Of a stretch of 64,000 bases of DNA, positions 3,712 through 21,660 are shown piece by piece. The translations under genes and the position numbers were made by a program. The notes below the pieces were generated by a model, which saw nothing but the letters and a program-made list of their open reading frames with translations, did not search any database and was not told the origin of the DNA. The stretch lies in NCBI GenBank assembly GCA_042571645.1, contig JBHPFW010000004.1, forward strand, positions 20,430-84,429. The letters are read 5' to 3'. Source of the stretch: Nanobdellota archaeon. Lineage in GTDB: Archaea > Nanobdellota > Nanobdellia > Woesearchaeales > JBHPFW01. Each line of letters begins with the position of its first letter. Positions within the stretch are counted from its first letter, which is position 1.

Positions 3712-4386
3712 ATGGTTAAATCAGAAACATTTGAACAATTTTTGACAACAACCAGCGCAGATATTAATCTGATTTACGTAATCATTTCAATACTTTTAGC
3801 TGCTTTCTTGTCTTTTATATTAAGCAGGATTTACACTAAATATGGTACTTCAATATCTAATAGAAGGAAATTTGCAGGTAATTTTATTCTTCTTTCTACT
3901 ACCACTACATTAATTATAATCATTGTAAAATCCTCATTAGCGCTTTCTTTAGGCTTGGTTGGTGCTTTATCCATTGTACGATTTCGGGCTGCAATTAAAG
4001 AACCTGAAGAATTAGGATTCTTATTTTTAAATATTAGTCTTGGACTGGGTCTTGGAGCAAATCAATTTGCTGTAACAATAATTGCATTTACAATCATAAG
4101 TCTATTGATTATGCTCAGAAAGTTTTCGCATGAAAAAAATGAAAATCAAAATCTAACTCTGACTATTACAAGTCATGGTTCGGGTAGGATCTCATTAGAT
4201 AAACTTACAGGAATACTAAAAAAACATTGCGATTATGTTCATTTGAAAAGATTTGATTCAACCAAAGATTTAATTGATGCTGCTTTTTTTGTCACATTTA
4301 GTTCTTTTAGTAGATTAGACAATTTAAAGAGGGAGTTAAAGAACTTATCCAAGTCAATAAAGCTTACTTACCTTGACAAGGGATAA
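3712..4386 (+). CDS. DUF4956-family membrane protein (copy 1)
   Basis: Multi-TM protein with the family-typical LSIVRFRAAIKEPEELGFLF motif. TATA TTTAAATA lies 22 nt upstream of the ATG. Confidence 0.75.
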   Translation: MVKSETFEQFLTTTSADINLIYVIISILLAAFLSFILSRIYTKYGTSISNRRKFAGNFILLSTTTTLIIIIVKSSLALSLGLVGALSIVRFRAAIKEPEELGFLFLNISLGLGLGANQFAVTIIAFTIISLLIMLRKFSHEKNENQNLTLTITSHGSGRISLDKLTGILKKHCDYVHLKRFDSTKDLIDAAFFVTFSSFSRLDNLKRELKNLSKSIKLTYLDKG

Positions 4387-4391: not shown

Positions 4392-7052
4392 ATGAAAATT
4401 AAGAACGAGTCTAAAAAGAAAGGTTTTTCTTCATTATCATTGAAAAGGATATTAAATAAAAAAAATCTTATCATAGTGTCTGCTTTTTTTCTAATCGGTT
4501 TTTTTGTTGTCGGTGTCTTATTCGGCATTTTCATAACAGGATTTTTTGGTACATTTGACAATCCTTCAAGTAATGCAATCAAATTGATAAATTTTTTTGG
4601 ATTTTCACCAAGCATGGGCAGTCTGCAACTATTTATGAGGGATGTTATCTCAGAAAATATCTTTATCCCTGTTAATTTTATTAAGGGAGCTTTTTCAAAT
4701 CCTGAAAAGATGTATATTGATATAAGCTTCAAGAATTATGAGAAACTACTGCATAAAAGAGAACAAAGTTTGAAATTAGGTATTCTTTTTTCTTCAGAAG
4801 AGGATTATGTTCCTGCAAAAATTAGATTCAACGATCAAATTGTAGATGTAAAACTAAGGCTAAAAGGAGATGCCTTAGACCATATAAAAGGTGAAAGATG
4901 GTCTTTCAGAATAAAAGTTAAAGGCGACGAAACTCTTTTTGGTATGGAAGTCTTATCAATACAAGATCCAAAAACAAGGAACTTTTTAAATGAGTTTATT
5001 TTTCAAGAAGCATTAAGAAGAGAGGGAGTAATCTCACTAAGAACCAAATTTATAGAAGTTTTTATAAATGGAGAAAGCAGAGGAATATATGAATTAGAAG
5101 AACATTTTGATAAAAGATTGATTGAAAATAATAATCTCAGAGAAGGACCGATAATAAAATTTAATGAAGGGTTATTTTATGACAGAAAAGTTTTTGGACC
5201 TACAATAGAACAGAAGACAAATGCTAAAGACTCTTATTTTAACACAGACATAGATTCTTTTCAAACTAAAAGAATAATGAATGATTCTATTAAATATGAA
5301 CAATATCTAAAGGCGAAGAATCTCCTAGAATCCTTCCGACAAGGAAAGCTAAATTCAAGTGAAGTTTTTGATTTAGAAAAACAAACAAGATTTTTCGCGA
5401 TATCCGAACTTATGGATGCCCATCACGGATTACATTCTAATAATGTTAGGTATTATTATAATCCCGTGACTTCAAAACTCGAACCCATCGGTTTTGATGG
5501 CGACGCAGGAGAATGGAATCAAGACAAGATTTTTCTTACTGATAAATATACTCCATTTGTACAAAGATTCTTTAAAGACAATATCTTCTTTGAAACATAT
5601 ATAAAAGAGCTCAGAAGAGTTTCACAAAAATCATATCTTGATAAACTTTTTTCTGAAATAGATGAGGAACTTGAAGATAACCTGAACATCATACATAAAG
5701 AGTATCAAAGTTACCATTTCTCAAAAGAAGATTATTATAAAAATCAAGAAGACATAAGGAAATATCTAGAACCCATACAACCTCTGCAAGCTTATTTTTA
5801 TAAAAAAACCTCAAATAGCAGCCTAATCATTCAAATTGCAAATACGCAGGAAATTCCAATAAAAATTCGAGACCTGATTTATAAGGGAATAATATTGAGA
5901 ACAAAGAAGGATATCATAATGAACTCTAAGAAGATAGGCGACCCATTAAAATTCAGATATGTTGAATTCTTCTTCCCTGAGAATTTCGAATGGTCTGAGG
6001 ACATTATAAGAAATATTGAACTAAGTTATCAGATTATCGGAATAGATGAACTAAAAAAGACAAATGTATATCCCTGGGCGAGACTTGATGAAAACTTTAT
6101 AGAAAATGACTTTATTAGGAAAAAACCGAATATTAATGAATTTGATTTCTTAGCTATTGATGAATCTAAAAAAATAATACATATAAAAAAAGGTAGTTGG
6201 ATAATAGATAGAAACCTAATTATACCGCAGGGGTTTATTGTATCAAGCAATAAAGGAACAGTAATGGATCTTAAAAATAATTCAATCATACTTTCTTATT
6301 CACGCTTTAATATTAGTGGAACTAAAGAAGAACCAATAAAAATAGAATCTTCAGACGGGACTGGACAAGGAATAGCATTATTAAATACGGACGAAAATTC
6401 TATTTTAAAATATGTAATTTTTGACAATCTTGCAGCACCATCTTTTAACGGATGGGAACTTACAGGAGCAGTCACATTTTACGAGTCTCCTGTTTATCTC
6501 GAGTCTTGTCACTTCATTAACATCCGATCTGAAGATGCACTAAACATAATAAGGTCTTCATTTGCTATGAAAAACTCATTCTTCAATAACACACTGTCAG
6601 ATTGTTTTGATGGAGACTTTGTTAGTGGATCTATTGTGAAATCTTCATTTTTTGAATGCGGTAATGATGCTGTGGACTTATCAGGAAGCGAAATCAAGAT
6701 AGATGGCATCAAAATCATTGATGCAGGAGATAAGGGACTAAGTTTTGGAGAAAAAAGCAAATTGCAGGCAGAAGATGTCTTTATAAAAAATAGCTATATT
6801 GGCGTTGCCTCCAAAGATCAAAGCCAAGTGAAAATAAAAAACTTGAATATATCAAACTCAGAATATGGTATTGCGTCTTATGAAAAAAAATCAGAATTTG
6901 GACCTGCAAGTATCAACATAACAGGTGTTTTAGAGCTGAATGATATTAAAACAGGATTTATTTTAGAAAAAGGTTCGGAAATAGAAGTTAACGGAATAGG
7001 CATTAAAGATTTTCAAACCGAAGTCTATAAAAAATTATATCCTAACGAATAA
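4392..7052 (+). CDS. CotH-kinase-family protein with N-terminal TM anchor and C-terminal parallel-beta-helix-like repeats (copy 1)
   Basis: The N-terminal TM is LIIVSAFFLIGFFVVGVLFGIF. CotH-like core motifs are ERWSFRIKVKG and HSNNVRYYYNP...PIGFDGD. The C-terminal ~280 aa consist of short repeats rich in N/S/G/D. Confidence 0.75.
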   Translation: MKIKNESKKKGFSSLSLKRILNKKNLIIVSAFFLIGFFVVGVLFGIFITGFFGTFDNPSSNAIKLINFFGFSPSMGSLQLFMRDVISENIFIPVNFIKGAFSNPEKMYIDISFKNYEKLLHKREQSLKLGILFSSEEDYVPAKIRFNDQIVDVKLRLKGDALDHIKGERWSFRIKVKGDETLFGMEVLSIQDPKTRNFLNEFIFQEALRREGVISLRTKFIEVFINGESRGIYELEEHFDKRLIENNNLREGPIIKFNEGLFYDRKVFGPTIEQKTNAKDSYFNTDIDSFQTKRIMNDSIKYEQYLKAKNLLESFRQGKLNSSEVFDLEKQTRFFAISELMDAHHGLHSNNVRYYYNPVTSKLEPIGFDGDAGEWNQDKIFLTDKYTPFVQRFFKDNIFFETYIKELRRVSQKSYLDKLFSEIDEELEDNLNIIHKEYQSYHFSKEDYYKNQEDIRKYLEPIQPLQAYFYKKTSNSSLIIQIANTQEIPIKIRDLIYKGIILRTKKDIIMNSKKIGDPLKFRYVEFFFPENFEWSEDIIRNIELSYQIIGIDELKKTNVYPWARLDENFIENDFIRKKPNINEFDFLAIDESKKIIHIKKGSWIIDRNLIIPQGFIVSSNKGTVMDLKNNSIILSYSRFNISGTKEEPIKIESSDGTGQGIALLNTDENSILKYVIFDNLAAPSFNGWELTGAVTFYESPVYLESCHFINIRSEDALNIIRSSFAMKNSFFNNTLSDCFDGDFVSGSIVKSSFFECGNDAVDLSGSEIKIDGIKIIDAGDKGLSFGEKSKLQAEDVFIKNSYIGVASKDQSQVKIKNLNISNSEYGIASYEKKSEFGPASINITGVLELNDIKTGFILEKGSEIEVNGIGIKDFQTEVYKKLYPNE

Positions 7053-7054
7053 AA

Positions 7055-7744
7055 ATGATTCATCATAAAAACGACTCAGATATGCGCTATGAAAGAAAAT
7101 TCGTCATTGAAGAATTAGACAAACAAGAAGTAGAATCCATAATAAAGCATAATCCTGGTATGTTCTCTGAGATATATCATGAAAGAGTTGTGAATAACAT
7201 CTACCTTGACTCAGAAAGCCTAGAAAATTACAATGACAATTTAATTGGCATGGGTCAAAGACTAAAAGTTCGTATAAGATGGTATGGGGAAACTAGGGGT
7301 CTAGTAAAAAAACCGGTTCTCGAGATAAAAATAAAGAGTAATGAACTAGGTACAAAACGATCTTTTCCTTTAAAACCATTTAAGGTCGATAAGAATCTGT
7401 CTTTAAGTTTTATTATTGAAAAAGTTATTTCAGAATCAAACTTGCCTTTAGATGTTATTGAACACCTAAAAAGCTTAAAATTTGCTTTATTAAACAAATA
7501 CAAACGTAAATATTTCAGTTCTCACGATAAAAAATATAGGATGACACTTGACTTTGATCTGGAATTTTATACAATCCATCAACATAGCAACCCTTTTATT
7601 GAAAGAATTAAATCTGATTTTGTCATATTAGAAGTTAAGTATTCTAAATCAGACGATGATGGGGCTGAAAATATAATAAACAATCTTCCATTTAGATTAA
7701 CAAAAAGCTCAAAATACGTTTCAGGAATAGACGAGTTATACTAA
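7055..7744 (+). CDS. VTC-domain (triphosphate-tunnel, polyphosphate-polymerase-like) protein (copy 1)
   Basis: MRYERKF... (EXEXK-like TTM signature), NNIYLDS and RLKVRIRWY, as in bacterial VTC-domain proteins. Starts 2 nt after the CotH stop. Confidence 0.7.
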   Translation: MIHHKNDSDMRYERKFVIEELDKQEVESIIKHNPGMFSEIYHERVVNNIYLDSESLENYNDNLIGMGQRLKVRIRWYGETRGLVKKPVLEIKIKSNELGTKRSFPLKPFKVDKNLSLSFIIEKVISESNLPLDVIEHLKSLKFALLNKYKRKYFSSHDKKYRMTLDFDLEFYTIHQHSNPFIERIKSDFVILEVKYSKSDDDGAENIINNLPFRLTKSSKYVSGIDELY

Positions 7745-7872: not shown

Positions 7873-9402
7873 TTATAAATCACTTTTCCTTCTAATTATA
7901 TTCATTACAAAAAAGATCTTATCTTTTGTAATAACCTTGAAAAGGAATAAAGAAATTATGTAAATAATGCTGCTCATTGATAATACAATGAAGCCCTCGC
8001 CCATAATTGCAAAAAGTGAATTCCCAAAAAATATGAACTTTTGAAGGATGGTTGATGAAATTCCAAATAAAATACAAGAAGCCAAAGTACCGAGAATAGC
8101 TGAGATATCAAGTTTTATATTAATTGATTTCATTATTATTCTCATAGTAAGATAGGCCATAACAATAAAACCAATTCCTGTTGCTATGGCTGCTCCAAGA
8201 TAATCAAAATAATAAATGAGGATGAAATCGAGAATCAGGTTAATAAAAGCACCATAATACATTATTCTTGATCTTTCCCTGGCTTTTCCAATAGCTGCAA
8301 TTACTGCAAAATTTATGCTTCTTAAAGCAATGAATACAAAAAACAAGATATAGACTTTCAGTACAAATGTGGCAGGTATGTATTTTGCTCCAAAAAGAAA
8401 AGCTATTATTTCCTTAGAATATAAAAAAAATAATATTGCGATTGGAAGAGTTACTATGAGTAGATTGTTGTACAGTGATGATACTACCTTAGATAACATC
8501 TTCGAGTCTTTTTTATGGTAAAAATTGCTTAATACAGGGAAAAGTACTGATGCTAACGGCGTTATCATAACTAAAATTACATTCAAGCTTGGAACAACAA
8601 CATTGTAATAACCAACAGACTCTGTACCTTTCATCCATGTTAGAACAAGATTGTCTGTGTAAAACAATAGTATTGTTGCAAAGCTCGAGAAAAGTATGGG
8701 TAAAGCATAACCAAATATCTTTTTAGTCATTTTAACATCATAATATGCTTTCACACACATCTCTTTTATCAGCAGTTTGTAGAGTATATAATGGATTATT
8801 ACAAGAAAGAATGCTGCTGCTAAATATGCATAGACTGTTGAATTTATTCCAAAACCAAGATAAAAAAACAAAAGTGAAAAAAGAAAGATTAAAGTCATAT
8901 TGACATAATTCTTCATATTAAAGATCACTAATCTTTGGAATGCGCCAAATACAGCTGACAAAGTGGGCACAAGGGTCCCAAATAAGAACATTATCAGCAA
9001 TATATCAATTAGAAAGTCAGCTTTTGGGTTCCTGAAAAAATTGAGCACTAGATAGCCCTTAACAATATAGACTATTCCTGCTATGACAAAACCAAAAATA
9101 AGCTGAGGCAATAAAGATATCCAAAGCACACCCTTTGCCTTTTTATAATCCTTTTTTGCGACATACTTGCTCATGAAGAATATCTCGCTCTCATACATTC
9201 CGAGATCCCTTAGAGGAGCAAGCAGAAATATGAAAGATATTACTGCATACACTAACCCATATTCAGCAATTGTCAGCTGTCTTGAGAAAAGTATCCTTAT
9301 CAGATAGCTTGAGACACTGCCAATAAAAGCAAAGATATACACTAAAAATATTGCCTTGGAAAATTTTTTTGCGTTCATTTTGCATCTGTGTTGGATCTTC
9401 AA
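7873..9402 (-). CDS. Wzx-like polysaccharide/oligosaccharide flippase (MOP superfamily)
   Basis: About 12-14 predicted TM helices across the whole length, in the typical 'polysaccharide biosynthesis protein' layout. The true start is probably ATG 9378 (MNAKKFSKAI...). Confidence 0.7.
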   Translation of the reverse strand: MKIQHRCKMNAKKFSKAIFLVYIFAFIGSVSSYLIRILFSRQLTIAEYGLVYAVISFIFLLAPLRDLGMYESEIFFMSKYVAKKDYKKAKGVLWISLLPQLIFGFVIAGIVYIVKGYLVLNFFRNPKADFLIDILLIMFLFGTLVPTLSAVFGAFQRLVIFNMKNYVNMTLIFLFSLLFFYLGFGINSTVYAYLAAAFFLVIIHYILYKLLIKEMCVKAYYDVKMTKKIFGYALPILFSSFATILLFYTDNLVLTWMKGTESVGYYNVVVPSLNVILVMITPLASVLFPVLSNFYHKKDSKMLSKVVSSLYNNLLIVTLPIAILFFLYSKEIIAFLFGAKYIPATFVLKVYILFFVFIALRSINFAVIAAIGKARERSRIMYYGAFINLILDFILIYYFDYLGAAIATGIGFIVMAYLTMRIIMKSINIKLDISAILGTLASCILFGISSTILQKFIFFGNSLFAIMGEGFIVLSMSSIIYIISLFLFKVITKDKIFFVMNIIRRKSDL

Positions 9403-9546: not shown

Positions 9547-10224
9547 TCATACTGCTTCTATATCTCCCGTATAAGATATCAGAGTTGCACTGCTTATATC
9601 TTTTATATGATTGAGCTTTGAGACAAACTCGTTGCTATCTTTGTGCTTTAACCTCACTTCATAAACAGTCTCAAAATGGTTTGCTGTTGAAGTGGTGGTT
9701 CTTACTTTATGATTCCTGCAGTAATCCAGTATCACTTTCGTTATTTCAGGACCTTTATTTTTTGTTGATTTCAGGATAAGTATGTACGGCTGGCTGATCG
9801 AAATTCTTTTAGAAGCAATAACCAATATGCCTGCTATAAATACTGCGGATATGGCTGCTAATCTATAAGCTCCGACCCCGCACACAATCCCTGTCGCTAT
9901 TGACCAAAAAAGATAAGCTATGTCTTTAGGCTCTTTTACTGCTGTTCTGAATCTTACAATTGACAAAGCACCGATCATACCAAGTGACAAAGCTATATTT
10001 CCGCTTATCACCATCACAATTACAGATGTTATAACTCCAACCAATATAAGAGTAACATTAAAATTTTTAGAATACAACACTCCATCATATGTTTTTTTAT
10101 AGATATAGTAAATAAAAACTACTATTATGAGTGCTACAACCATATTCATTAACATCTCTCCTAAAGTGAGTGAACCTCCTTCAACAGATGATATCAAAAA
10201 ATCCTTAATTCCTTTCTTAAACAT
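9547..10224 (-). CDS. DUF4956-family membrane protein (copy 2)
   Basis: Motif ALSIVRFRTAVKEPKDIAYLFWSIATGIVCG. I prefer ATG 10224 (MFKKGIK...), which is preceded by GGGGGT, over the track start at 10260. Confidence 0.8.
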   Translation of the reverse strand: MFKKGIKDFLISSVEGGSLTLGEMLMNMVVALIIVVFIYYIYKKTYDGVLYSKNFNVTLILVGVITSVIVMVISGNIALSLGMIGALSIVRFRTAVKEPKDIAYLFWSIATGIVCGVGAYRLAAISAVFIAGILVIASKRISISQPYILILKSTKNKGPEITKVILDYCRNHKVRTTTSTANHFETVYEVRLKHKDSNEFVSKLNHIKDISSATLISYTGDIEAV

Positions 10225-10235
10225 TTTTTTACCCC

Positions 10236-10922
10236 CTAATCGATTGTTCTTGACATGCAAAATTTGCTTATCGCAGACCTGAAAAAGCTATGCACCTGCA
10301 ATATATCTTTAACTTCTTCAGGTATCCCTTTATTAAACTTGATCTCCATTATGACAAGATTATTGTTTCTAATAGACCTCTTGTCTTTTGGCTCTGAAAA
10401 GATATCAGAATGTGTCTCACTGAATGAAAGCTCCTCATCAAAAGTTATCCTGAAATTATTCAGGGGAAATGAAAAGGCCATCCTTTTGTAATCAACCATG
10501 GTAACAGGCCTGTAATAGTCCTTCTTAAACTGAGCATAGATCTTGTTCAAGATATTATTTTTATATTTGAGCAAAACATCGAGGTTGCCTTTTATGACTT
10601 CTTTTGCATCTTTCCTTGATATTATGACTGTTTCTTTCAATATCTGGTCGTTTGACTTGTTTTTTATCTCAAATTTGACATTATGGTCATCCAAATCATA
10701 GATTCTCATCCGGTATTTGCTTCTGGACAAAAGACCTCTTATTTTTTCAAGATATGCTCTGTTCATTACATTATCGAAATAAAGGCTTCTTACAAAATAA
10801 GGACCTTTTTCTGAATGCTTGTCAAAAGGAAGAACTTTTGAGAGTAGATTGCGCATTACAATATACTCAGGTCTTGTTATGTAATACTTAAGTTCATATC
10901 TCTTGAAAAATCTGGAGCTCAT
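10236..10922 (-). CDS. VTC-domain (triphosphate-tunnel, polyphosphate-polymerase-like) protein (copy 2)
   Basis: Motifs RYELKYYI, YFVRSLYFD and KYRMRIYD. ATGA overlap with the upstream CotH gene. Confidence 0.8.
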   Translation of the reverse strand: MSSRFFKRYELKYYITRPEYIVMRNLLSKVLPFDKHSEKGPYFVRSLYFDNVMNRAYLEKIRGLLSRSKYRMRIYDLDDHNVKFEIKNKSNDQILKETVIISRKDAKEVIKGNLDVLLKYKNNILNKIYAQFKKDYYRPVTMVDYKRMAFSFPLNNFRITFDEELSFSETHSDIFSEPKDKRSIRNNNLVIMEIKFNKGIPEEVKDILQVHSFFRSAISKFCMSRTID

Positions 10923-13666
10923 GAAGCTGCCTCCTTAAATCCGCTATTTCTTAATTTCTCAAAAAAGGCATCATAACCCAAAAAATCAAGTTTTGTCCTG
11001 GCAAAATCTGTATAATCTAATTCGTCAGCATCATAAATAACAGATTCCTTATCAGGATCAAATTTTTGCATATTCTTTGTAAAATCATTATCTTTGATGT
11101 AAGTTACACCTCCTCCGAATATTTGCTTTTTCCTGTATGATGAAATTGCTACGTTATTTTCTATAAAATCATTTCTTAATGCAAAAACTTCTGATAAGTC
11201 CTTAACAGCAATGCCCAAATTATTTTCTTTTATCTTATTGTTGTACAATATTGTTTTTGTATTCTCTCCAATACTTACTCCTTTGTCTTTGAAACTGTTG
11301 AACGAATTGTTCTCTAACAAGATAAGTGAACCGCTCAGATCAATCCCATCTCCATTGTCGTCCCCACCAGAATCAGTAAATTTTGAGTTATATACATAAC
11401 CTTTGCAGAAATCCAGATCTACTTGGTCTGCAAAATTATGTGAGAAATCACATTCAGATATTCTCACAGACGCTGTTTTTATATTAAGGCCGTCATCCCC
11501 TTTATTGTCATGTATAAAACAGTTATCCATTTCAACATCTGAATGGTATAAAGACAATGCACCTATACAGAATATGCCGTTTATAAAAGCATCCGATCCT
11601 CCTGAAAGATCAAGATAAGACACCTTATTGGTTGTCTTTCCATCTCCAATGACACAAAATGATCCAAATGGACCTTTTCCTTTAAAGTCAGAAATAACTA
11701 CTGGTTCTTTTTTTGTCCCTTTTATATCTAGAGGGCTGTAAGATAATATCGAAATTTCAGGCAGTATCTTTATCTCTGTTCCTGCTTCAATTATAAGAGT
11801 AAATCCTTCAGGGATCACTAGGTTTTCATCTATTTCATATGTGCCTTTTTTTATGATAATATCTGTTCTATTTAATTCTGCATCAATATTAAAATCTTCT
11901 TTAAGTGAACTGACTAAGAATTCTTTTTCAATTAAAGAATAATAAAGGTTTTGATCAGCATATTTTATTACTATGTTCTCGTCAGTTAATTCATTTCCGC
12001 TGTACGAATTTTTAGCCTCTATCTTTATGCCAGTCAGATTGATTTTTTCCCTATCCTCGAATGTTATCCTATATCTGAATTTTTTCTTCTTGGGATATAA
12101 TTCTTCATCTAAACCAGTGAATAATATCTTATCTTTAAATAAGTCCTTAAATTCTGTATCGCTTTTTTTTATTTTGTATTCTTTCTTTTCCTGTTTGTCT
12201 TCAATATCCCCAAAATCTTCAATAATTATTACTTCTTCATTAGCTAGGGGGGTATCTAAGATTAACATAAACTTTTCCATATTTATTTCTGCATTGCTAT
12301 CAGGAAAAACTGTGATATCCAGATAATTATCTTTTTGTTTTGATTCAACATAAATCATCGAATGTCTGAAATTTTTGTCAAGAAGATTGATATTGTTCAA
12401 TATTGTTTCATATTGTTTTTGGACCTCGTGTTTTATCCTTTTGCTGCCCCAAAGGATTGTATTGTCCTGAATAAGCAAAGAAGTATATTTTTTATCTAAA
12501 TAGTTATAATGATCTAAAGATTTTTCCTTATTTTTTAATAAGAAATATAATTTTTTATTACGTGATGACCTCATCTCATCTATCTTGACAAGTTCTCTCG
12601 GAAGCGCAGCAACATGATTAAGATTGTGTTCAAATCCTCCTTTTTCTGCAGTAAGAGGATTTATCGGACTTTCCAATCTTGCTATCAAAAAGAATTTTCC
12701 AGAGGAAAGGTCATAACCAATCCTGAGATTAAATAGACCTAAATCATGGTCCTTTCCGAGTATACTCTGCCATGCTAAAAAAGAGGCAGTTTTATCAGCA
12801 TCAAAAAGTTCTTCTAATTTTGCAGTATTATTTTCTGAGCTCGCATTGATCAATTCCATTACTTTTGTCAATATCTGTTTCTCATATTCGCTATCAATTT
12901 CTTCAAGACCTCCAATGCCAAAATCATCATACTCAAAAGCCACATTAATCCCGCCAATATTTTCTGTGCCAATAAGTTTATCAATAAAGCTATTGTACAA
13001 TTTAGTATTTGAATATCTTATCACAACAGAATCTGAAAGTTTGTTCTTTTCCAGGAATTCATTATCAATATTTTCTTCCATGTAATATATGCCTTGAAAA
13101 ACACCATTTTTATAGACTGCAGATAGATTCATATTCATAGAAGGCAGTTCAAGCAATTCTGCTATCTTATTTGAGAAAAGAGGTGCAAGAAGGGATCTGT
13201 CATGAGGAACTATGAAATTTATCCGTCTCATGTTGTCAATATATTCATCATTTTTTGTTTTTATCTTGAATGATTTCTTATAAAAACCGTAATGGGTTCT
13301 TGTTTCTCCGTGAAGTGCCATTTTTACATCATTGTATCTTTCCCCTTTGTAATCTAAGATAATTTTCCTGTAATCTCTTGCTTCTTCAGGTCTTGTATGG
13401 CCTTTTCCTTCTGTTTCAGATATGTTTATTGCTTTTTCAAAATACCTCATATCATTTGGAGAAAGATAAAATCTAAATGTAGGCAAATTTGCTTCAGTTA
13501 TTTGTCTTTTGTTCCTAAATATATTTATATCGTCAACAAGCTTTATCGCGATCCACCTTACCTGAATCAAATTAAAAACATTTCCTGTAAGTTCGTCTAC
13601 CTTGGGAACTACGTCAAACATAAAGACTTCGCTGTGATATAAAAATCCTAAAACTATCAAAAACAT
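10919..13666 (-). CDS. CotH-kinase-family protein with C-terminal beta-helix-like repeats (copy 2)
   Basis: CotH-like FYKKSFKIKTKNDEY. The C-terminal repeat region is paralogous to copy 1 (ILSYS..I.GTK.EP..I motif, followed by D/G/N-rich repeats). Confidence 0.75.
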   Translation of the reverse strand: MFLIVLGFLYHSEVFMFDVVPKVDELTGNVFNLIQVRWIAIKLVDDINIFRNKRQITEANLPTFRFYLSPNDMRYFEKAINISETEGKGHTRPEEARDYRKIILDYKGERYNDVKMALHGETRTHYGFYKKSFKIKTKNDEYIDNMRRINFIVPHDRSLLAPLFSNKIAELLELPSMNMNLSAVYKNGVFQGIYYMEENIDNEFLEKNKLSDSVVIRYSNTKLYNSFIDKLIGTENIGGINVAFEYDDFGIGGLEEIDSEYEKQILTKVMELINASSENNTAKLEELFDADKTASFLAWQSILGKDHDLGLFNLRIGYDLSSGKFFLIARLESPINPLTAEKGGFEHNLNHVAALPRELVKIDEMRSSRNKKLYFLLKNKEKSLDHYNYLDKKYTSLLIQDNTILWGSKRIKHEVQKQYETILNNINLLDKNFRHSMIYVESKQKDNYLDITVFPDSNAEINMEKFMLILDTPLANEEVIIIEDFGDIEDKQEKKEYKIKKSDTEFKDLFKDKILFTGLDEELYPKKKKFRYRITFEDREKINLTGIKIEAKNSYSGNELTDENIVIKYADQNLYYSLIEKEFLVSSLKEDFNIDAELNRTDIIIKKGTYEIDENLVIPEGFTLIIEAGTEIKILPEISILSYSPLDIKGTKKEPVVISDFKGKGPFGSFCVIGDGKTTNKVSYLDLSGGSDAFINGIFCIGALSLYHSDVEMDNCFIHDNKGDDGLNIKTASVRISECDFSHNFADQVDLDFCKGYVYNSKFTDSGGDDNGDGIDLSGSLILLENNSFNSFKDKGVSIGENTKTILYNNKIKENNLGIAVKDLSEVFALRNDFIENNVAISSYRKKQIFGGGVTYIKDNDFTKNMQKFDPDKESVIYDADELDYTDFARTKLDFLGYDAFFEKLRNSGFKEAAS

Positions 13667-13829
13667 GGCTAAAAAAATGCCAGTATATAATAGTAACTTC
13701 TTAGATGGTCTGCCTATATTAAAAACACCCCCGCTATGTGAAAATATTGTCGTCCAAAAAGCTTCTTTTATTCAAACTTGTGTAGTTGAATAAAACCGAT
13801 ATAAAATTATAAACTCTTGATTCTTCAAA

Positions 13830-15143
13830 CTATTTTCTCCCAACACCAACATACCTAAAACCTGTCTCTTTCATCTCCTGAGGATCCCAAATATTTCTTC
13901 CATCAACTACATTTGGCTGTTTCATCAGGAACTTTATTTTTTCCTTATCAAGTTCTCGGAATTCATCCCATTCTGTCACAACAACAAGGCAGTCGGCATT
14001 TCTAAGAACATCATAAGGTGTTTTACCATAGTCTACTTTTTTAAGGATTTTTTTGGCATTATTTATTGCAACAGGATCAAAAGCTCTGACTTTTGCGCCT
14101 TGTTTTTGAAGTGCATCAATAATTGTTATTGAAGATGCTTCTCTCATGTCGTCTGTTCTCGGTTTGAATGCCAGACCCCATATCGCTATTATCTTGCCTT
14201 TTAAACTACTGCCACAAAGATTTTTTATCTTTGGTATTATGCTAATCTTTTGCTCTTCATTAACTTCATGAACTGCTTTGAGTATCTTTAGATTCAGTTT
14301 GTTTTCCTTTGCAGTATTAATAAATCCCCTAACATCTTTCGGGAAACAACTGCCTCCATATCCGATACCTGCCTGTAGAAATCTTGAGCCTATTCTTTCA
14401 TCAAGACCCATACCTCTAGCCACTGTTTTAATATCTGCTCCTGTTTTCTCGCAAAGTCTTGATACCTCATTTATGAATGATATTTTAGTGGCCAGATAGG
14501 CGTTAGAGGCATATTTTATTGTCTCTGCACTTTTGACATCGCAGAACATTATTGGTTTTCCTGTTCGTTCTACAGGCTTGAAAAGTTTGTAGAGAATTTC
14601 TTTTGCTTTGTCATTCTCAACTCCAATTATTGTTCTGTCTGTATTGAAGAAATCCTTGACTGCCGCTCCTTCTCTAAGGAATTCCGGATTAGAAGCAACA
14701 TCAAATTTTATATCCCGTTTTCTTTTGTCAAGTTCTTTTTGGATTATTTTCTTTATCTTTTTTCCTGTTCCGACAGGTACTGTGCTTTTTGTTACTATGA
14801 CTTTATATGATTCAATAGTTTTTCCTAGTTCTTTTGCTACTGATTCAACAAAACTTAGATCAACACCGCCATCTTTTTTACTTGGTGTGCCAACCGCGAT
14901 AAAGATTACCTCTGCATTCTTAACAGCAGGTGTGCTTTTGTTTGTGAAAATAATCCTTTTTTCTTTGTGGTTTCTATCAACTAATTCTTTAAGGCCGGGC
15001 TCATATATTGGAATAATGCCTTTTTTGAGTTTTGCTAATTTTGCTTTGTCTATATCTATGCATATTACATCATTGCCTAGCTCTGCTAAACAAGTTCCTA
15101 AAACAAGGCCGACATATCCAGTGCCATAAACAGCTATCTTCAC
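13830..15143 (-). CDS. ugd: UDP-glucose 6-dehydrogenase
   Basis: MKIAVYGTGYVGLV Rossmann N-terminus and catalytic GGSCFPKD. Confidence 0.9.
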   Translation of the reverse strand: MKIAVYGTGYVGLVLGTCLAELGNDVICIDIDKAKLAKLKKGIIPIYEPGLKELVDRNHKEKRIIFTNKSTPAVKNAEVIFIAVGTPSKKDGGVDLSFVESVAKELGKTIESYKVIVTKSTVPVGTGKKIKKIIQKELDKRKRDIKFDVASNPEFLREGAAVKDFFNTDRTIIGVENDKAKEILYKLFKPVERTGKPIMFCDVKSAETIKYASNAYLATKISFINEVSRLCEKTGADIKTVARGMGLDERIGSRFLQAGIGYGGSCFPKDVRGFINTAKENKLNLKILKAVHEVNEEQKISIIPKIKNLCGSSLKGKIIAIWGLAFKPRTDDMREASSITIIDALQKQGAKVRAFDPVAINNAKKILKKVDYGKTPYDVLRNADCLVVVTEWDEFRELDKEKIKFLMKQPNVVDGRNIWDPQEMKETGFRYVGVGRK

Positions 15144-16528
15144 TTTAATACCTCTAAATTGTCTTTTATTTCTTTGAACTCTGAAAGTATTTTTAAAATT
15201 ATTCCTTTAATATCATCTAGTTTGTCTTTTGTCTTTGCTTCTGCTCTCACAATAAGCTTAGGAGATGTATTTGATGCTCTGACTAGCACCCATCCATCTT
15301 CTATTGTTGCTCTAACACCATCAATATCCAGAGTTTCATAATCTTTTTTTAGTTCTTCCTTTACTTTTTTAACAATCTCAAATTTCACATTATCTGGGCA
15401 ATCAATTCTCAATTCTGGTGTTATTGAATAGGATGGTATTTCTGCAGCCATCTGTGATAAGGTCATATCAGTATTTGAAAGGATTTCTAAGAATTTGCAG
15501 CTTGCATATATTGCATCATCAAAACCATAATAATCCTCTGCAAAGAAAAGATGACCCGACATTTCTCCAGCTAATAGAGCTTGTTCTTCTTTTAGCTTTG
15601 CTTTGATAAAGGAATGACCTGTTTTCCACATAATTGGGTGTCCGCCTTGGTCTTGAATATATTCTTGTAATGCCATTGAGCACTTAACTTCAAATATTAT
15701 TTTTGAGGCAGGTGCTCTCTTGAGAAGGTCCTTTGCCAGAATTCCTAAAAGGGTATCGCCCCATATTATGTTTCCTTGCTCATCAACTAGCCCTATTCTG
15801 TCAGCATCTCCATCATATCCTATGCCCATGTCTGCTTTATTTTCCTTTACTGCTTTTATCAGATCCTGCATGCACTCTGTTCTTGTAGGATCTGCAAGAT
15901 GATTAGGGAAATTTCCATCAGGTTCACTAAATAGCTCTATTACCTCACATCCAAGCTCTTTAATAATTTTTGGTGCTATCACTCCTGCACATCCATTTCC
16001 AGAATCAATAACAACCTTAAGTTTTTTGGCAGGATTCAAGCCTATTTTTGATTTTATCATGGCTTGATATGCTGGAACTATTTCCTCATTCTTTATTTTT
16101 CCTTTTCCTTTTACGAACTCTCCTTTTTCTGCAATCTCTCTTATTTCTTGGATTTCATCTCCAAAAAGAGCTCTAGCTTCATTTATGCAGAGTTTACAAC
16201 CATTGTATTCTTTTGGATTATGGGATGCAGTAATTTGTGCACCGCCATCTGATTTGTGATGGAATATTGAGAAATATAATGCAGGTGTAGAGCAAATGCC
16301 GACATCAATAACATTCACCCCTGTAGAAGTAATTCCTTTGATAAAGGCTTCCTTAAACTTAGGGGTGGTGGTTCTTATGTCTCCCCCAACTGTGATTGTG
16401 CCTTTGCCTTCAAGATATGTTCCAAAAGCTTTTCCAATAACAACAACTCCTTCTTCATCTATATCCTTATCAACAATGCCTCTTATGTCATAGGCTCTGA
16501 AAATTTCTGGATTAAGCATTTTAATCAA
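15140..16528 (-). CDS. phosphomannomutase/phosphoglucomutase
   Basis: Active-site TASHNP and metal loop GYDGDADR. 4 nt overlap with ugd. Confidence 0.9.
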   Translation of the reverse strand: MIKMLNPEIFRAYDIRGIVDKDIDEEGVVVIGKAFGTYLEGKGTITVGGDIRTTTPKFKEAFIKGITSTGVNVIDVGICSTPALYFSIFHHKSDGGAQITASHNPKEYNGCKLCINEARALFGDEIQEIREIAEKGEFVKGKGKIKNEEIVPAYQAMIKSKIGLNPAKKLKVVIDSGNGCAGVIAPKIIKELGCEVIELFSEPDGNFPNHLADPTRTECMQDLIKAVKENKADMGIGYDGDADRIGLVDEQGNIIWGDTLLGILAKDLLKRAPASKIIFEVKCSMALQEYIQDQGGHPIMWKTGHSFIKAKLKEEQALLAGEMSGHLFFAEDYYGFDDAIYASCKFLEILSNTDMTLSQMAAEIPSYSITPELRIDCPDNVKFEIVKKVKEELKKDYETLDIDGVRATIEDGWVLVRASNTSPKLIVRAEAKTKDKLDDIKGIILKILSEFKEIKDNLEVLK

Positions 16529-16543
16529 ATCCTCATTTGTCTT

Positions 16544-17266
16544 CTATGTTGCTGGTCTTTTCCATTCTTTTTTTACTTGTTCATATCTTTCTAATGTACC
16601 TGTGTCAAACCATCGGCCTTTGTCTTCAAAAGCAAAAAGCTTATGGTCCTTTGCCACAGCAGGAAAAATATCTGTTTCAAGCATGATTTTCTTTTTATCC
16701 TGTCTTTTTAATTCTTCAGCATATTCAAATACTTTTGGTTCAAATATGTAATAGCCAGAGCTTATTAGGTTTGATGGTGCCTCTTCTCTATTAGGTTTTT
16801 CAACAAAAGATGTTATTCTTTCACCATCAAGCTCAACAACACCATATTGGCTTGGATCTTCAACAGCTGTTAAGGCAATAGTGATTGTTGCTTTATTCTG
16901 ATCATGAAACTGAAGCATTTTTTTCAAGTCAAGATCAAAAAGGTTATCGCCATTAACAACCATGAATGTTTCCTGAAAATCTGTTTTATCCACAATATTA
17001 AGCCATCCTCCTGTTCCAAGAGGATCCTCTTCAATTAGGTAGTTTATCTTTATTCCTTCAACAGGATTTTTATCAAAATATTCTTTTATTTTGTCTGCCA
17101 TATATCCTATTGACAAATAAACTTCATTAATATCAAGTTTTTTCAAAACATCTATCACATGTTCTGTTAATGTTTTGCCATTAATGTCAATTAAGGCCTT
17201 TGGCATTTCATCTGTTAATGGTTTTAATCTCGTTCCCAAACCGCCTGCAATAATAACTGCTTTCAT
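16544..17266 (-). CDS. sugar-1-phosphate nucleotidyltransferase
   Basis: N-terminal MKAVIIAGGLGTRLKPLT signature. Confidence 0.85.
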   Translation of the reverse strand: MKAVIIAGGLGTRLKPLTDEMPKALIDINGKTLTEHVIDVLKKLDINEVYLSIGYMADKIKEYFDKNPVEGIKINYLIEEDPLGTGGWLNIVDKTDFQETFMVVNGDNLFDLDLKKMLQFHDQNKATITIALTAVEDPSQYGVVELDGERITSFVEKPNREEAPSNLISSGYYIFEPKVFEYAEELKRQDKKKIMLETDIFPAVAKDHKLFAFEDKGRWFDTGTLERYEQVKKEWKRPAT

Positions 17267-17290
17267 TTCTTATTATATTATTTTTTTAAA

Positions 17291-17932
17291 TTATTTTTTA
17301 GGCACAGACTCCCAATCTTTGAGGAATCTTTCAATTCCTTTATCAGTTAAATCATGCTTAAGCATTTCCCCAATGATTTTTGGAGGAATTGTTGCTATAT
17401 GAGCTCCAAAAAGAGCTGATTTTCTAACATGGTCCATGTTTCTTACACTGGCCACAATTATTTCTGTTTCAAAATCATAATTCTTGAATATTTCTGCTAT
17501 TTCCTTTATTAGCTGCATACCATCTTCTCCAATATCATCAAGCCTGCCAACAAATGGACTTACATATGTCGCTCCTGACTTGGCAGCAAGTAAAGCTTGA
17601 TTTGCTGAAAATACTAATGTGACATTTGTCTTTATGCCTTCTTTAGAAAGGACTTTTGTTGCCTTTAGGCCTTCTCCAGTCATTGGAATCTTTATTACAA
17701 TGTTCTTATGAATTTTTGCAAGTTCTCTGGCTTCTTCTACCATACCTTGGGATTCAAGACTTATTACCTCTGCAGAAATAGGTCCTTCAACAATGCCACA
17801 AATCTCTGTCACAACTTCCTTAAAATCTCGGCCTTCTTTGGATATTAAGCTGGGATTTGTTGTAACACCATCTGCAACATATGAATATTTTTTTATTTCT
17901 TCGACATTTGCTGTATCTATGAATATTTTCAT
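17291..17932 (-). CDS. tal: short transaldolase / fructose-6-phosphate aldolase (TalC/Fsa type)
   Basis: Motifs [22 protein letters not shown] and VIKIP. Length of 213 aa is typical of this type. Confidence 0.85.
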
Positions 17933-17946
17933 TCTAAGACCACCAC

Positions 17947-17986
17947 TTACTGTATTATTACTGTATTGTTTACTTTGTACTGTATT
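17947..17986 (-). promoter_or_regulatory. three copies of AATACAGTA(A) in the leader just upstream of the tal start codon
   Basis: The plus strand reads TTACTGTATT at 17947-17956 and 17958-17967, and GTACTGTATT at 17977-17986. Confidence 0.3.
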
Positions 17987-18141
17987 GTTTACCTTGTTTA
18001 ATTTCCAAGATTCTTAAACCTTTTTAAACCCCCCCGATTGCCTAAATAAAGGTTGTATTTAAAAAATTAACTGATAACACTGTTAAGCTAGAAGCTTCAT
18101 ACAGCTAATATGAAACCCTCGCGATTTATTCTAAATAAAGG

Positions 18142-18257
18142 TTATTGAGACTGTCAGAGCGAGTGCCAACCAATTACAGTTGCATCTCGCAATCATGAGC
18201 ATTGACGCAAAAACAAGTGATAAACAAGGGCACTCTTGGCGCTGACAGTCTCAATAA
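18142..18257. repeat. 116 bp hairpin / inverted-repeat element (MITE-like or structured RNA)
   Basis: TTATTGAGACTGTCAG (18142-18157) is the exact reverse complement of 18242-18257 (16 bp). The helix extends through GC (18159-60 / 18239-40) and GAGTGCC/GGCACTC (18161-67 / 18229-35). The loop is 61 nt. Confidence 0.6.
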
Positions 18258-18348
18258 TACCAGAAATAGAGTGTTTATATTAGCCGCTTCATGCAAAACC
18301 TTTATAAATCCATATTTTTCCTGGCTGATGAAGATGGGGGAATTTTGA

Positions 18349-21300: not shown

Positions 21301-21660
21301 GCTGCCACAAAACATTTTGAACCTATTTCAGAAAAGCAAGCAATAAACGGAGAAAAGATAATTGTTTGGAAAGTTAATTGGGAAGGAATAGAAAAACCCA
21401 TTATAGAGGAAATAGAAGAAGACTCAGATACAGAATCTGATAATGAAATTGAATTGGTTGAACTGGAAGAAGAAACAGCAAGTAATGAAACAGATAGTGA
21501 GTCAGAGAGTGATGGAATCATTGCAGATACTGAAACCACAGAATTAAATGAATCCAATGATTCAGAAGATGATTTAGAAGATTCTGATAATGTGATAGAT
21601 AATGAAACATCTGAATCAGATATATCTTATGTTGGAAATGAATCAAATGAATCTAATTGA
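18349..21660 (+). CDS. aglB: archaeal oligosaccharyltransferase AglB (STT3 family) with N- and C-terminal low-complexity tails
   Basis: WWDYGHW motif and a multi-TM N-terminal half. Total length 1103 aa. Confidence 0.9.
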   Translation: MSKENDDEITLDLSKIFGFLKPSKKPESDDSESKSKERESKEKESKKHHTKEHSDANSETHHTEHKKEHHKAEHHKEHKTEHHHKAEESSHSKSKKEEQDEISIDIQSIKKFLVKHKTLILLLIPLIFSLFLRVQTADLGATDVWAANSVYGGMKSNIEKQINQQYPNLPPQSRSELVNENFEKLKSEHKEEINQQIKQASDYYKSRFQDENGDPYILDLDSYFWIRYVENIVEKGYPADEKLPDGTYRDNHMWAPKGVKYNPSLHPWSGAIFHKIWSIFNSKATPMRSFFFISLPFALLTVLGAFFIGRRFGGDLTGFFVGLIMSVHPSLLSRTLTPDTDVYSIFFPVMIVLFFLEGFEAENLKKGLIFMSIAGLFCGLYSFTWGGWWFLFDLLLAALGIVLLHRIIEDMFHQKKKGRGFKLPFEKLKIPIILGLVFIVSSAIFVSIFLEPSSLQNALSGPLGRLHIKDAAKVSYWPNVFTTVAELNPASIKTAINNLGGNFFFGLALLGVLFTLRKKEDGTRDIKYAIILIIWFAGTIFMTTKGVRFLLLTTPAFCIALGIFFGSFYKILVKWISKLIDAKKGLIISGIKAICILFFLLLLGFSPIPKCNEQGCSFMAFGMAAQAKASVNGRVPLINDAWVESLQNIDTIAAPDAIVNSWWDYGHWFKYWADRAVTFDGASQNSPPAHWVGKVLSTDNEDLAVGILRMLDCGSNDAYDYLFKTLKVHPLDAVEIFNEILVVDRDEAKEILKDWDISDKDIDNILELSHCEPPENYFITSQDMVGKAGVWAHFGNWNFTKAFIWQNTKGKTAAEAIDLIVDELGYSEEKANDIYYEVSGLIGEDQANAWISPWPNFLSATLRPCNLESDNETLICRHNTQISRDSRQSVNLDSIEINLSAPSESKLKFVGRDRQSGVVVGESEGKPSAVIIIKNNELFEYKSNGTTFDYDFVVMQGSDGSYGCLGAHPLLAKSLFARLFYFNGAATKHFEPISEKQAINGEKIIVWKVNWEGIEKPIIEEIEEDSDTESDNEIELVELEEETASNETDSESESDGIIADTETTELNESNDSEDDLEDSDNVIDNETSESDISYVGNESNESN

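Follow-up and report, generated by a model that had tools for sequence, protein, structure and literature searches.

The window analysed here, a stretch of 64,000 nucleotides from an archaeon of the DPANN/Woesearchaeota kind, carries two complete DUF4956/CotH/VTC trios, one at 3712-7744 on the plus strand and one at 9547-13666 on the minus strand. Trio 1 begins with D1, a DUF4956 membrane protein of the subfamily described below as type A (3712..4386; PF16316, 56.9 bits), followed by C1, a signal-anchored CotH-like protein of the His-type (4392..7052; PF08757, 43.4 bits), and V1, a soluble VTC-domain polyphosphate-polymerase-like protein (7055..7744; PF09359, 98.2 bits). Trio 2 runs from C2, a CotH-like protein that is likewise His-type and belongs to a clade of its own (10919..13666; PF08757, 49.6 bits; Beta_helix, 44.2 bits), through V2, a type B VTC-domain polyphosphate-polymerase-like protein (10236..10922; PF09359, 138.8 bits), to D2, a type B, Bacillota-like DUF4956 membrane protein (9547..10224; PF16316, 59.4-59.6 bits). 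With the Pfam gathering scores as the threshold, all six proteins passed. The open reading frames and Pfam matches of trio 2 bore out an earlier sequence-only reading, as did the ATGA overlap of the C2 and V2 genes, which reads tcATGAgc and has AAGGAGG upstream. The ATG of D2 at 10224 is preceded at 6 nt by a Shine-Dalgarno-like GGGGGT motif and fits the family N-terminus; a TTG at 10260 is likewise open as a start, and an oligo-T tract follows the D2 stop.

The two trios lie on opposite strands and are convergent, as had been proposed, with one Wzx-type polysaccharide flippase gene (7873..9402, minus strand; GC3 0.312) in the 1.8 kb between them. The flippase points in the same direction as trio 2 and was matched by Polysacc_synt (88.6 bits) and Polysacc_synt_3 (79 bits), with weak SpoVB, TuaB and MurJ matches. 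The trios sit in a glycan locus adjoining AglB. In the Pfam annotation of 13830..21660, which holds genes on both strands, UDP-glucose dehydrogenase, phosphogluco/mannomutase, sugar-nucleotidyltransferase and transaldolase are all encoded on the minus strand, and the AglB/STT3 oligosaccharyltransferase (18349-21660), with weak NCBIfam archaeo_STT3/PglB matches, on the plus strand. Glycan genes also surround four of the related loci (L001, L095, L094 and L167).

Active sites and domain structure of the trio proteins

Both V1 and V2 keep all 21 columns that are invariant in an alignment of 44 sequences (A4), and these columns map on Vtc4 K200, R264, R266, K281, Y359, R361, E426, S457 and K458. 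The Vtc4 residue set from K200 to K458 is required for polyphosphate (polyP) synthesis, and K458 separates active Vtc4 from inactive Vtc2/3 (bioRxiv 10.1101/2023.01.27.525886). Every Vtc4 catalytic residue is thus present in the two copies, including the K458 equivalent. As in eukaryotic VTC, the catalytic tunnel has a membrane protein as its obligatory partner. V1 and V2 are without a hydrophobic segment, and the multi-pass D proteins have 3-4. In contrast to eukaryotic VTC, the catalytic domain here stands alone as a 228-aa protein, with neither SPX nor TM helices fused to it; no similarity was detected between DUF4956 and the channel subunits, and nothing in VTC corresponds to CotH. D1 carries the invariant LSLG..GALSIVRFRAAIKEP motif. 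Searches with DUF4956 gave a weak MgtC match only; neither the Vtc1/3/4 channel nor any solved structure showed sequence similarity to it. We know of no experiment that assigns a part in polyP synthesis to a bacterial or archaeal VTC-domain protein, or a part in transport to DUF4956.

The CotH proteins have an N-terminal K/R-rich segment followed by a TM helix. In the AF2 model of C1 (pLDDT 89.9), the TM helix spans residues 23-52 and the CotH fold about 105-460, followed by a beta-sandwich (465-560) and a C-terminal right-handed beta-helix (587-870). The C2 model (pLDDT 69) has the same domain order, its kinase region being moderately confident. In Foldseek searches, the CotH structure 5JDA was found with C1 (E 4e-13) and C2 (E 2.8e-12), followed by polysaccharide-active beta-helix proteins (GH87, tailspike, AlgG and PL6); the beta-helix matches of C1 include the adhesin PfbA. 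C1 and C2 share the fold of the Bacillus CotH kinase (PDB 5JD9/5JDA; B. subtilis D228, D251; TMt about 0.66), with a profile match of E 1.8e-13 and conservation of the catalytic-loop Asn. Unlike that protein, they add the membrane anchor, beta-sandwich and beta-helix, are about 900 aa long rather than 360 aa, and occur outside a sporulation context.

In both proteins a conserved His replaces the catalytic Asp of the spore-coat CotH kinases, its position relative to B. cereus D224 differing by one residue between HMMER and hhalign. In C1 this is H345, with D369 at the metal Asp position; in C2, Leu-Glu stands at the type A metal Asp site, placing the Glu one residue away from the Bacillus metal Asp. 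Of 35 type A proteins, 33 have lost the catalytic Asp, as has the C2 family. Neither this loss in the two CotH copies nor the archaeal host figured in the sequence-only reading. Since neither CotH has the canonical catalytic Asp, both may be inactive scaffolds. Against this, conservation of the substituting His, of the loop Asn (50/52 in the C2 family and 29/35 in type A) and of an acidic metal-site residue argues for retained chemistry.

The C2 gene has no canonical start codon ahead of the membrane anchor: no in-frame ATG, GTG or TTG was found upstream of 13666, and the database gene call, which begins at the second ATG, yields a protein of 900 aa with the anchor missing. Read from the sequence, an in-frame ATA (13717-13715) with an SD-like GGGGGTG (13732-13726) 8 nt upstream lies in the interval 13715..13732 on the minus strand, and a start there would add MGRPSKK and a full TM helix. 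A strongly hydrophobic N-terminal 19-mer occurs at the matching place in 37/44 C2 relatives. The true C2 start is possibly at 13717.

Two subfamilies and the ancestry of the trios

The motifs quoted earlier as shared by the paralog pairs (ALSIVRFR.A.KEP, RYE.K and ILSYS..I.GTK.EP) were all found, and the copies are indeed old rather than a recent duplicate, the pairs being far apart in sequence. Between C1 and C2, identity is 34% in the beta-helix block of 250 aa and 25% in a 218-aa stretch of the kinase region. V1 and V2 gave a single BLASTP segment (29%, 78 aa, E 2e-4), and D1 and D2 are 33% identical over 120 aa (22-33% across comparisons).

Neighbor-joining trees of DUF4956 and VTC, built from 160 related loci picked by similarity to D1 or D2 among the best 600 matches listed, split cleanly into two old subfamilies, A and B, although for D (not for V or C) the gap between them is partly a sampling effect, because of this choice of loci. 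D1 and V1 fell on the type A side and D2 and V2 on the type B side in 200/200 bootstraps, which settles the alternative left by the sequence-only reading, ancient duplication or independent acquisition, in favour of the latter. Type A loci have the order D-C-V and occur in many bacteria and archaea; about 30 complete type A loci show this order, as do Methanosarcina and Methanogenium. Type B, from Bacillota, has the order V-D(-C) in 80/80 loci. With D-C-V the usual order in type A, and V followed by D the usual pair in type B, an interpretation of the permuted order as shuffling of a retained set is not supported. Judged by its sequence, trio 1 is a typical example of the type A module, which is widespread and also found in other archaea and in many bacteria. 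Among the matches listed, the nearest relatives of D1 are metagenome loci with 59-62% identity, including the archaeal L084, and the best relatives of D2 are Bacillota loci with 39-45% identity. Relatives were also checked for one or two trios: in the neighbourhood comparison of 162 related loci, with a flank of up to 10 kb on each side, the window alone had a second DUF4956 gene.

Trio 2 is a mosaic by its sequence affiliations, since that of C2 differs from that of V2 and D2: the V-D pair is Bacillota type B, and the CotH is from a separate His-type beta-helix clade. D2 and V2 have the same sister set, L003+L011 (61/100 and 54/100 bootstraps, respectively), and L011, their closest relative among the matches listed, has a canonical 479-aa CotH. 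C2 instead groups with His-type beta-helix CotH, away from the Bacillota CotH that usually accompanies type B pairs. It is matched best by type-A-like rather than type B proteins, and a CotH encoded by the second ORF of L164 shares 35% identity with it over 756 aa. The C2 clade was supported in 100/100 bootstraps and type B CotH formed a separate group in 99/100, in a kinase-region alignment that spans very distant groups (12-20% identity). By hhalign, the C2 clade is closer to type A (E 2e-27) than to type B (E 3e-10), and the His at the catalytic position is common to C2 and type A CotH. GC3 of V2 (0.397) is the highest of the 32 window genes, and that of C2 is host-like. Co-divergence of the three genes held for distances within each subfamily, which correlate gene to gene (Mantel r 0.30-0.87, p <= 0.01), and failed for C2, whose history differs from that of V2 and D2; the refuting case of unrelated histories, named with the original proposal, applies in part to trio 2.

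An ancient duplication within the archaeal lineage, after which one copy diverged strongly and was rearranged, would account for two trios only 1.8 kb apart that flank one flippase, for the 34% identity of the beta-helix blocks and for both CotH being His-type. Nevertheless, we regard it as very improbable. Nesting of D1 and V1 within type A, and of D2 and V2 within Bacillota type B, contradicts duplication for these two genes; D1 is far closer to other loci (59-62%) than to D2 (22-33%); the relatives of C1 at 42-51% identity number more than 1500, and C2 has a separate set of about 50 full-length ones at 27-39%; and the gene order of each trio fits its own subfamily. It is also quite unlikely that trio 2 has lost its function and is decaying, surviving only by chance beside a functional trio 1. 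The C2 call lacking a canonical start before its family-typical anchor, its Leu-Glu and its moderately confident kinase-region model point that way, but all three genes are free of frameshifts and internal stops, V2 keeps 21/21 invariant residues with a higher Pfam score than V1, and C2 deviates at only 1/56 columns conserved at >=90%, its R-x-E motif being normal for its own family (Glu in 43/52). The translational coupling signals (ATGA overlap, AAGGAGG and GGGGGT) are intact as well, and the in-frame ATA has an SD-like motif upstream. The possibility of a decaying duplicate, raised with the original proposal, thus found little in its favour in intact reading frames and complete VTC catalytic tunnels. 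We consider it rather probable that the two modules in the window, both of them versions of one conserved three-component system, were acquired independently and are not a duplicate pair.

Functional linkage and a possible role in surface glycan modification

Earlier work had already recorded the three-gene set as such in the pel and NELoc-2 loci of bacteria. Gram-positive pel loci contain an adjoining cotH, poly-phosphate polymerase and DUF4956 set, with DUF4832 (Whitfield et al., bioRxiv 10.1101/768473); as here, the three families are contiguous at an exopolysaccharide locus, and that Bacillota lineage includes the type B V-D pair of trio 2. In contrast to pel, the present locus is of the Wzx/AglB type, has an archaeal host and two modules, and its CotH is the long His-type beta-helix form instead of the canonical Asp-type; pel genes and DUF4832 were not found among the annotated neighbours. 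NELoc-2 of Clostridium perfringens reads VTC, 'tubulin/FtsZ' (DUF4956), resolvase, VTC, DUF4956, CotH, a 685-aa protein, HEAT and a chitin-synthase-like GT (PMC2879425), a layout also seen in L011 (V-D-CotH479-716aa-HEAT-GT2). It likewise has a doubled V-D pair near CotH in a surface-polymer locus, but its pairs are in tandem with a resolvase between them and one canonical CotH, whereas the modules here belong to different subfamilies, are convergent and have one CotH each.

In 126/147 loci with enough flank (67/71 type A and 59/76 type B), a CotH gene is found no more than 4 kb from DUF4956. Together with the Mantel correlations, this upholds the proposal that the three products very probably function together, and it would agree with a machine that spans the membrane. 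V-D pairs without CotH occur in 17 type B loci, some of which carry a Cthe_2159 protein instead.

For the mechanism, we tentatively propose that VTC would make polyP from NTP on the cytoplasmic side of the membrane, with DUF4956 as a putative membrane partner or conduit, by analogy to the transmembrane channel of eukaryotic VTC. Outside the cell, where the CotH/beta-helix protein would have no ATP, it may draw on the exported polyP to attach phosphate to, or make some other change in, a surface glycan that the Wzx/AglB locus around the trios produces. Taken on its own, this whole polyP-to-surface-glycan route is possible but less probable than not being so. The xylose kinase Fam20B and POMK are secretory-pathway glycan kinases with atypical kinase folds that act on the non-cytoplasmic side. 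A kinase-like fold acting on glycans outside the cytoplasm is the picture proposed here for CotH/beta-helix proteins, with no homology beyond the superfamily implied; Fam20B and POMK differ in using lumenal ATP and retaining the catalytic Asp.

Two other functional readings have to be weighed. In one, CotH proteins are ATP-dependent kinases that regulate polysaccharide synthesis, and VTC/DUF4956 forms a separate MgtC-like phosphate or polyP storage-homeostasis unit merely co-regulated with envelope genes. CotH phosphorylation was proposed to regulate Pel synthesis (Whitfield et al., 10.1101/768473), Bacillus CotH is a protein kinase (PMC7821199), and both the weak MgtC resemblance of DUF4956 and the 17 loci without CotH, some with Cthe_2159, agree with this. 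It is nonetheless doubtful here, as both CotH proteins carry a signal anchor that would place the kinase fold on the outer side of the membrane, where ATP is absent, have His for the catalytic Asp and are fused to a polysaccharide-type beta-helix rather than a regulatory domain, and the three genes are translationally coupled and co-diverging. The other reading, to which we also assign a low probability, takes the His-type proteins as pseudokinase adhesins or glycan-binding scaffolds that bind or organise polyP deposited on the cell surface by VTC-DUF4956; loss of the catalytic Asp in type A and the C2 family, the PfbA match and the pairing of V-D with Cthe_2159, a non-enzymatic carbohydrate-binding family, would fit, and the strong conservation of His, loop Asn and acidic metal-site residue speaks against it. 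If the polyP-to-surface-glycan mechanism is true, the two modules would serve two different glycans or conditions.

Two convergent trios in the glycan locus of an archaeon

In trio 1, the DUF4956 gene D1 (3712-4386), the CotH gene C1 (4392-7052) and the VTC gene V1 (7055-7744) are contiguous on the forward strand, and the genes of trio 2 are likewise contiguous on the reverse strand, comprising C2 (CotH, 10919-13666), V2 (VTC, 10236-10922) and D2 (DUF4956, 9547-10224). A gene for a Wzx-type flippase (7873-9402, reverse strand) lies between the two convergent trios. All six ORFs were found at the coordinates of the sequence-only reading and all six products exceeded the Pfam gathering thresholds. 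With PF08757 (cut-off 23.8 bits), C1 scored 43.4 bits and C2 49.6 bits, the match of C2 being limited to profile positions 11-205 of 322; V1 and V2 matched PF09359 (cut-off 23) over nearly the full length with 98.2 and 138.8 bits, and D1 and D2 matched PF16316 (cut-off 30.6) with 56.9 and 59.4 bits. The ATGA overlap of C2 and V2 was confirmed, with AAGGAGG just upstream, and D2 starts with the ATG at 10224, preceded by a GGGGGT motif. The paralogs are as far apart as had been read from the sequence: identity between the CotH proteins is 34% in the beta-helix block and 25% in the kinase region, V1 and V2 are joined by a single weak BLASTP segment, and D1 and D2 are 33% identical over 120 aa. 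An alignment of 40 DUF4956 sequences including D1 and D2 showed 19 invariant columns, and the motif LSLG..GALSIVRFR.A.KEP, invariant in DUF4956, is present in both.

The trios are housed in a glycan locus with genes for UDP-glucose dehydrogenase, phosphomannomutase, a sugar nucleotidyltransferase and AglB, and their annotated neighbours are HAD, transketolase, Wzx, UGDH, PGM, NTP-transferase, transaldolase and AglB. Archaeal genes in the window (G+C about 33%) encode ribosomal protein S3Ae, the 1103-aa STT3/AglB (18349-21660), a Bud32/RIO-type kinase, Memo and FttA/aCPSF1, others of these markers lying at 26264-27127, 29907-31634 and 56272-58173. The aCPSF1, which is the one marker used for placement within the archaea by sequence, shares 70-73% identity with proteins labelled Candidatus Woesearchaeota or Nanoarchaeota, and therefore the host is a DPANN-type archaeon. 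An archaeal host of the trio modules is new. The archaeal nature of the host was absent from the sequence-only reading.

The window also contains a full histidine pathway. In its his operon (37263-38984 and 40178-42394), a HisC-like class I/II aminotransferase is fused to a HAD hydrolase in a protein of 573 aa, and two more HAD genes are present; these HAD parts are possibly the missing histidinol-phosphate phosphatase. The transketolase is split into N- and C-terminal subunits (1030-2755) and a transaldolase/FSA gene is located at 17291-17932, which together with the histidine pathway makes the metabolism rather rich by the standards of DPANN-type archaea. No Pfam match at E <= 1e-4 was obtained for the long ORFs at 27684-29219 (511 aa) and 50189-52267 (692 aa), nor for those at 53687-55384 (565 aa), 24729-25658 (309 aa) and 46664-47554 (296 aa). 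tRNA and Rfam scans of the window gave no matches, a promoter and terminator scan, whose bacterial models are not applicable to an archaeal host, stayed at chance level, and synteny of the window with related loci was negligible outside the trio.

Module types and the make-up of trio 2

Comparison loci were picked by similarity to D1 or D2 from the matches listed in genome and metagenome scans. The genome scan seeded with D2 gave at least 80 DUF4956 loci, almost all from Bacillota, with 39-45% identity and one Bathyarchaeota MAG among the loci listed; VTC was directly 5' of DUF4956 in all those listed, and CotH usually came next (V-D-C). At least 80 loci with identity of up to 62% were obtained in the metagenome scan seeded with D1-like sequences, and about 30 complete loci among those listed have the order of trio 1, namely D, a CotH of about 850-950 aa, and V. 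The closest D1-like locus among the matches listed, L084, is archaeal (DUF655 and RpoD genes), and in another, L094, an STT3 gene is found upstream of the trio. C1 has at least 1545 full-length database relatives with 42-51% identity, including proteins from KSB1, Thermotogota, Planctomycetota, Chloroflexota, Lachnospiraceae, Methanosarcina and Methanogenium, and the two methanogen genomes show the orders D-C-V and D-C-Metallophos-V, respectively. We designated the old D/V subfamily with the order D-C-V as type A and the Bacillota subfamily with the order V-D-C as type B. Each order is standard in its own subfamily, and therefore the permutation is a difference between two old module types; the earlier claim that a retained gene set had been shuffled was not borne out, as the order of each trio follows its module type.

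Neighbour-joining trees of 162 DUF4956 and 125 VTC sequences separated types A and B without exception, with D1 and V1 in type A and D2 and V2 in type B in 200/200 bootstraps. This split agrees with the earlier proposal that the two copies are no recent duplicates and, of the two origins offered there, favours independent acquisition. Within each type, the distances among the three genes were correlated (Mantel r 0.77-0.87 in type B and 0.30-0.38 in type A, all with p <= 0.01). A CotH gene occurs within 4 kb of DUF4956 in 67/71 type A and 59/76 type B loci with enough flank, as counted with a jackhmmer search from B. cereus CotH that also takes in short canonical CotH proteins (575 aa in L001, 479 aa in L011). 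Proximity and correlation together support a functional unit, in agreement with the earlier suggestion that the three products act together.

A history shared by all three genes of a trio held only in part for trio 2. The loci L003 and L011 form the sister set of both D2 (61/100 bootstraps) and V2 (54/100), indicating that D2 and V2 arrived as a pair, and C2 belongs to another CotH lineage. The best matches of C2 are type-A-like; it shares 35% identity with a CotH of L164 across 756 aa, and an exhaustive search gave about 50 full-length relatives with 27-39% identity. In the kinase-region tree, which uses score distances because Kimura distances were saturated and joins CotH groups only 12-20% identical in the alignment, the C2 clade had 100/100 support and the Bacillota CotH proteins formed a separate group with B. 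cereus CotH (99/100). Profile comparison placed the C2 clade nearer to type A (E 2e-27) than to type B (E 3e-10), and in L011, which among the matches listed holds the closest counterparts of V2 and D2, the CotH is canonical. GC3 is highest in V2 (0.397) among 32 window genes (mean about 0.25) and is also raised in D2 (0.301) and the flippase gene (0.312), with C2 and trio 1 being host-like. From these lineages and the GC3 contrast, trio 2 is, as far as sequence comparison can tell, a mosaic with a type B V-D pair beside a CotH of another lineage, and the flippase/D2/V2 block (7873-10922, reverse strand) may have arrived after C2 and trio 1. Two adjoining modules of different subfamilies and the mosaic origin of trio 2 are new.

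Several related loci depart from the plain trio. Phosphate-chemistry genes are inserted within type A trios: in Methanogenium marinum (L168, 10695-11771) a Metallophos phosphoesterase gene separates CotH from VTC, and in L002 (9129-10004) a gene for CYTH, a second tunnel enzyme, separates DUF4956 from CotH. In L001 (5546-12589), L153 and L155, a single DUF4956-VTC pair precedes two CotH genes, one for a canonical Asp-type protein of about 575 aa and one for a beta-helix form of about 860 aa with His at the canonical catalytic Asp position (His-type), which in L001 is preceded by a Wzy gene; both CotH classes can thus serve one V-D pair. L006 (9095-12584) and L024 (9986-14210) are examples of other layouts: some V-D pairs neighbour a Cthe_2159 carbohydrate-binding beta-helix protein in place of CotH, the gene being 3' of a two-component system in L006, and the Bathyarchaeota locus has a lamin-tail-domain protein between D and V. 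The closest C2 relatives, in L164 (466-5915) and L163, are tandem CotH paralogs (594 aa and >807 aa) directly 3' of a cis-prenyltransferase (UPP/DHDD synthase-like) gene on contigs that end before any V or D gene comes into view; this neighbour hints at a link to polyprenyl-phosphate-linked glycans.

Active sites of the VTC and CotH proteins

All 21 invariant columns of a 44-protein VTC alignment are kept in V1 and V2. In a profile alignment to Vtc4, the invariant columns map on K200, R264, R266, K281, Y359, R361, E426, S457 and K458, which are required for polyphosphate (polyP) synthesis, and K458 distinguishes active Vtc4 from Vtc2/3 (10.1101/2023.01.27.525886). Judged by this mapping, V1 and V2 alike keep all Vtc4 tunnel residues, and bacterial and archaeal VTC proteins retain the full Vtc4 active site. 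V1 and V2 are single-domain proteins of 228-229 aa, unlike eukaryotic VTC, in which an SPX sensor and a VTC-type transmembrane channel are fused. We considered the adjacent DUF4956 as a homolog of this channel and rejected it, since the PDB profile search gave no similarity to VTC chains or any solved structure and only a weak MgtC match was seen.

Single-sequence PDB searches with C1 and C2 gave no matches, and a profile search was required. In the AF2 model of C1 (pLDDT 89.9), a TM helix at residues 23-52 precedes a CotH fold at about 105-460, after which come a beta-sandwich at 465-560 and a right-handed beta-helix at 587-870. The top Foldseek match was B. cereus CotH (5JDA/5JD9) for both C1 (E 4e-13, target-normalised TM-score 0.67) and C2 (E 2.8e-12, target-normalised TM-score 0.66), followed for C1 by GH87 glucanase, phage tailspike depolymerases, AlgG epimerase, PL6 lyases and polygalacturonases; the C2 model (pLDDT 69) has the same domain order and matches.

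The catalytic region was compared through hhalign-merged profiles. In B. subtilis CotH the catalytic residues are D228 and D251 (PMC7821199); they probably correspond to D224 and D247 of B. cereus CotH, judging from the NFDG and PWDYD motifs conserved in 5JD9. Asp occupies both positions in 38/38 type B CotH proteins. At the catalytic Asp position, His is found in C1 (H345), C2, 33/35 type A proteins and 42/52 C2 relatives, with the His placement differing by one residue between HMMER and hhalign (the neighbouring residue in C1 being Gly) and no Asp in type A under either placement; in C2 the His is directly followed by Asp. The metal-binding Asp is kept in C1 (D369) and varies in type A (D 25, E 7, N 2). 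In C2 this column is Leu, then Glu, within an R-x-E motif typical of its clade (Glu in 43/52). The long beta-helix CotH partners therefore seem, from the aligned residues, to constitute a new His-type class distinct from canonical CotH kinases. Decay is seen in neither trio, as V1 and V2 keep their invariant residues and C2 deviates at 1/56 columns conserved at >=90% in its family.

One anomaly of C2 is the missing canonical start. An N-terminal K/R-rich stretch and TM helix occur in 37/44 C2 relatives, and in C2 the in-frame stretch ahead of the first ATG (13666) encodes this helix and contains no ATG, GTG or TTG. Translation probably begins at an ATA (13717-13715, reverse strand) that lies 8 nt downstream of an SD-like GGGGGTG and would yield MGRPSKK and the full helix; this codon may serve as a near-cognate start, or may reflect an ATG>ATA change or an error in the assembly.

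Known systems and a possible polyphosphate machine

CotH, PPP (polyphosphate polymerase) and DUF4956 have been described as accessory genes of pel loci in Gram-positive bacteria, with CotH proposed to regulate Pel synthesis (10.1101/768473). This set shares the contiguous co-directional trio with both trios of the window; however, it adjoins pelDEA(DA)FG with DUF4832, and no Pel or DUF4832 families were detected by Pfam scans of the window. C. perfringens NELoc-2 contains two V-DUF4956 pairs, with DUF4956 annotated as tubulin/FtsZ, and one CotH (PMC2879425). In the literature found, the trio and the bacterial VTC and DUF4956 proteins appear in gene lists with no function assigned. The trio is widespread and occurs in surface-polymer loci, including those for biofilm (pel) and NELoc-2.

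D1 and D2 have 3-4 hydrophobic segments and V1 and V2 have none, and from these segments and the C1 and C2 models the parts are predicted to span the membrane, with V inside, D in the membrane and C outside. In the mechanism that we favour, V would synthesize polyP, D would serve in its passage or hand-over, and the external CotH/beta-helix protein would use the polymer on a glycan. In a more speculative model, to which we assign a low probability, the trios are the prokaryotic counterpart of the eukaryotic VTC machine, extended by an external enzyme: V would act as a cytoplasmic tunnel polymerase that threads polyP outward through DUF4956, and the His-type CotH/beta-helix enzyme would take polyP, not ATP, as the phosphoryl donor to phosphorylate or polyphosphorylate a surface glycan, possibly through a phospho-histidine on the residue that replaces the kinase catalytic Asp. 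Such a model would represent a new way to energise extracellular chemistry, in more than 1000 bacterial and archaeal lineages.

The window represents a natural experiment in which a reduced archaeon gained the module twice from different lineages. Interchangeable components of one machine would be expected to leave such a pattern, in which a foreign V-D pair stands beside a CotH from another clade. The comparison also sets apart two CotH partner classes, the canonical Asp-type and the long His-type with beta-helix. Methanosarcina sp. Mfa9 (CP195119.1), a cultivated member of a genetically tractable genus, carries the trio in the order D-C-V and lends itself to experiments. Export of polyP by the trio, if confirmed, would account for the ability of prokaryotes to phosphorylate extracellular substrates and would be relevant to the origin of eukaryotic VTC.
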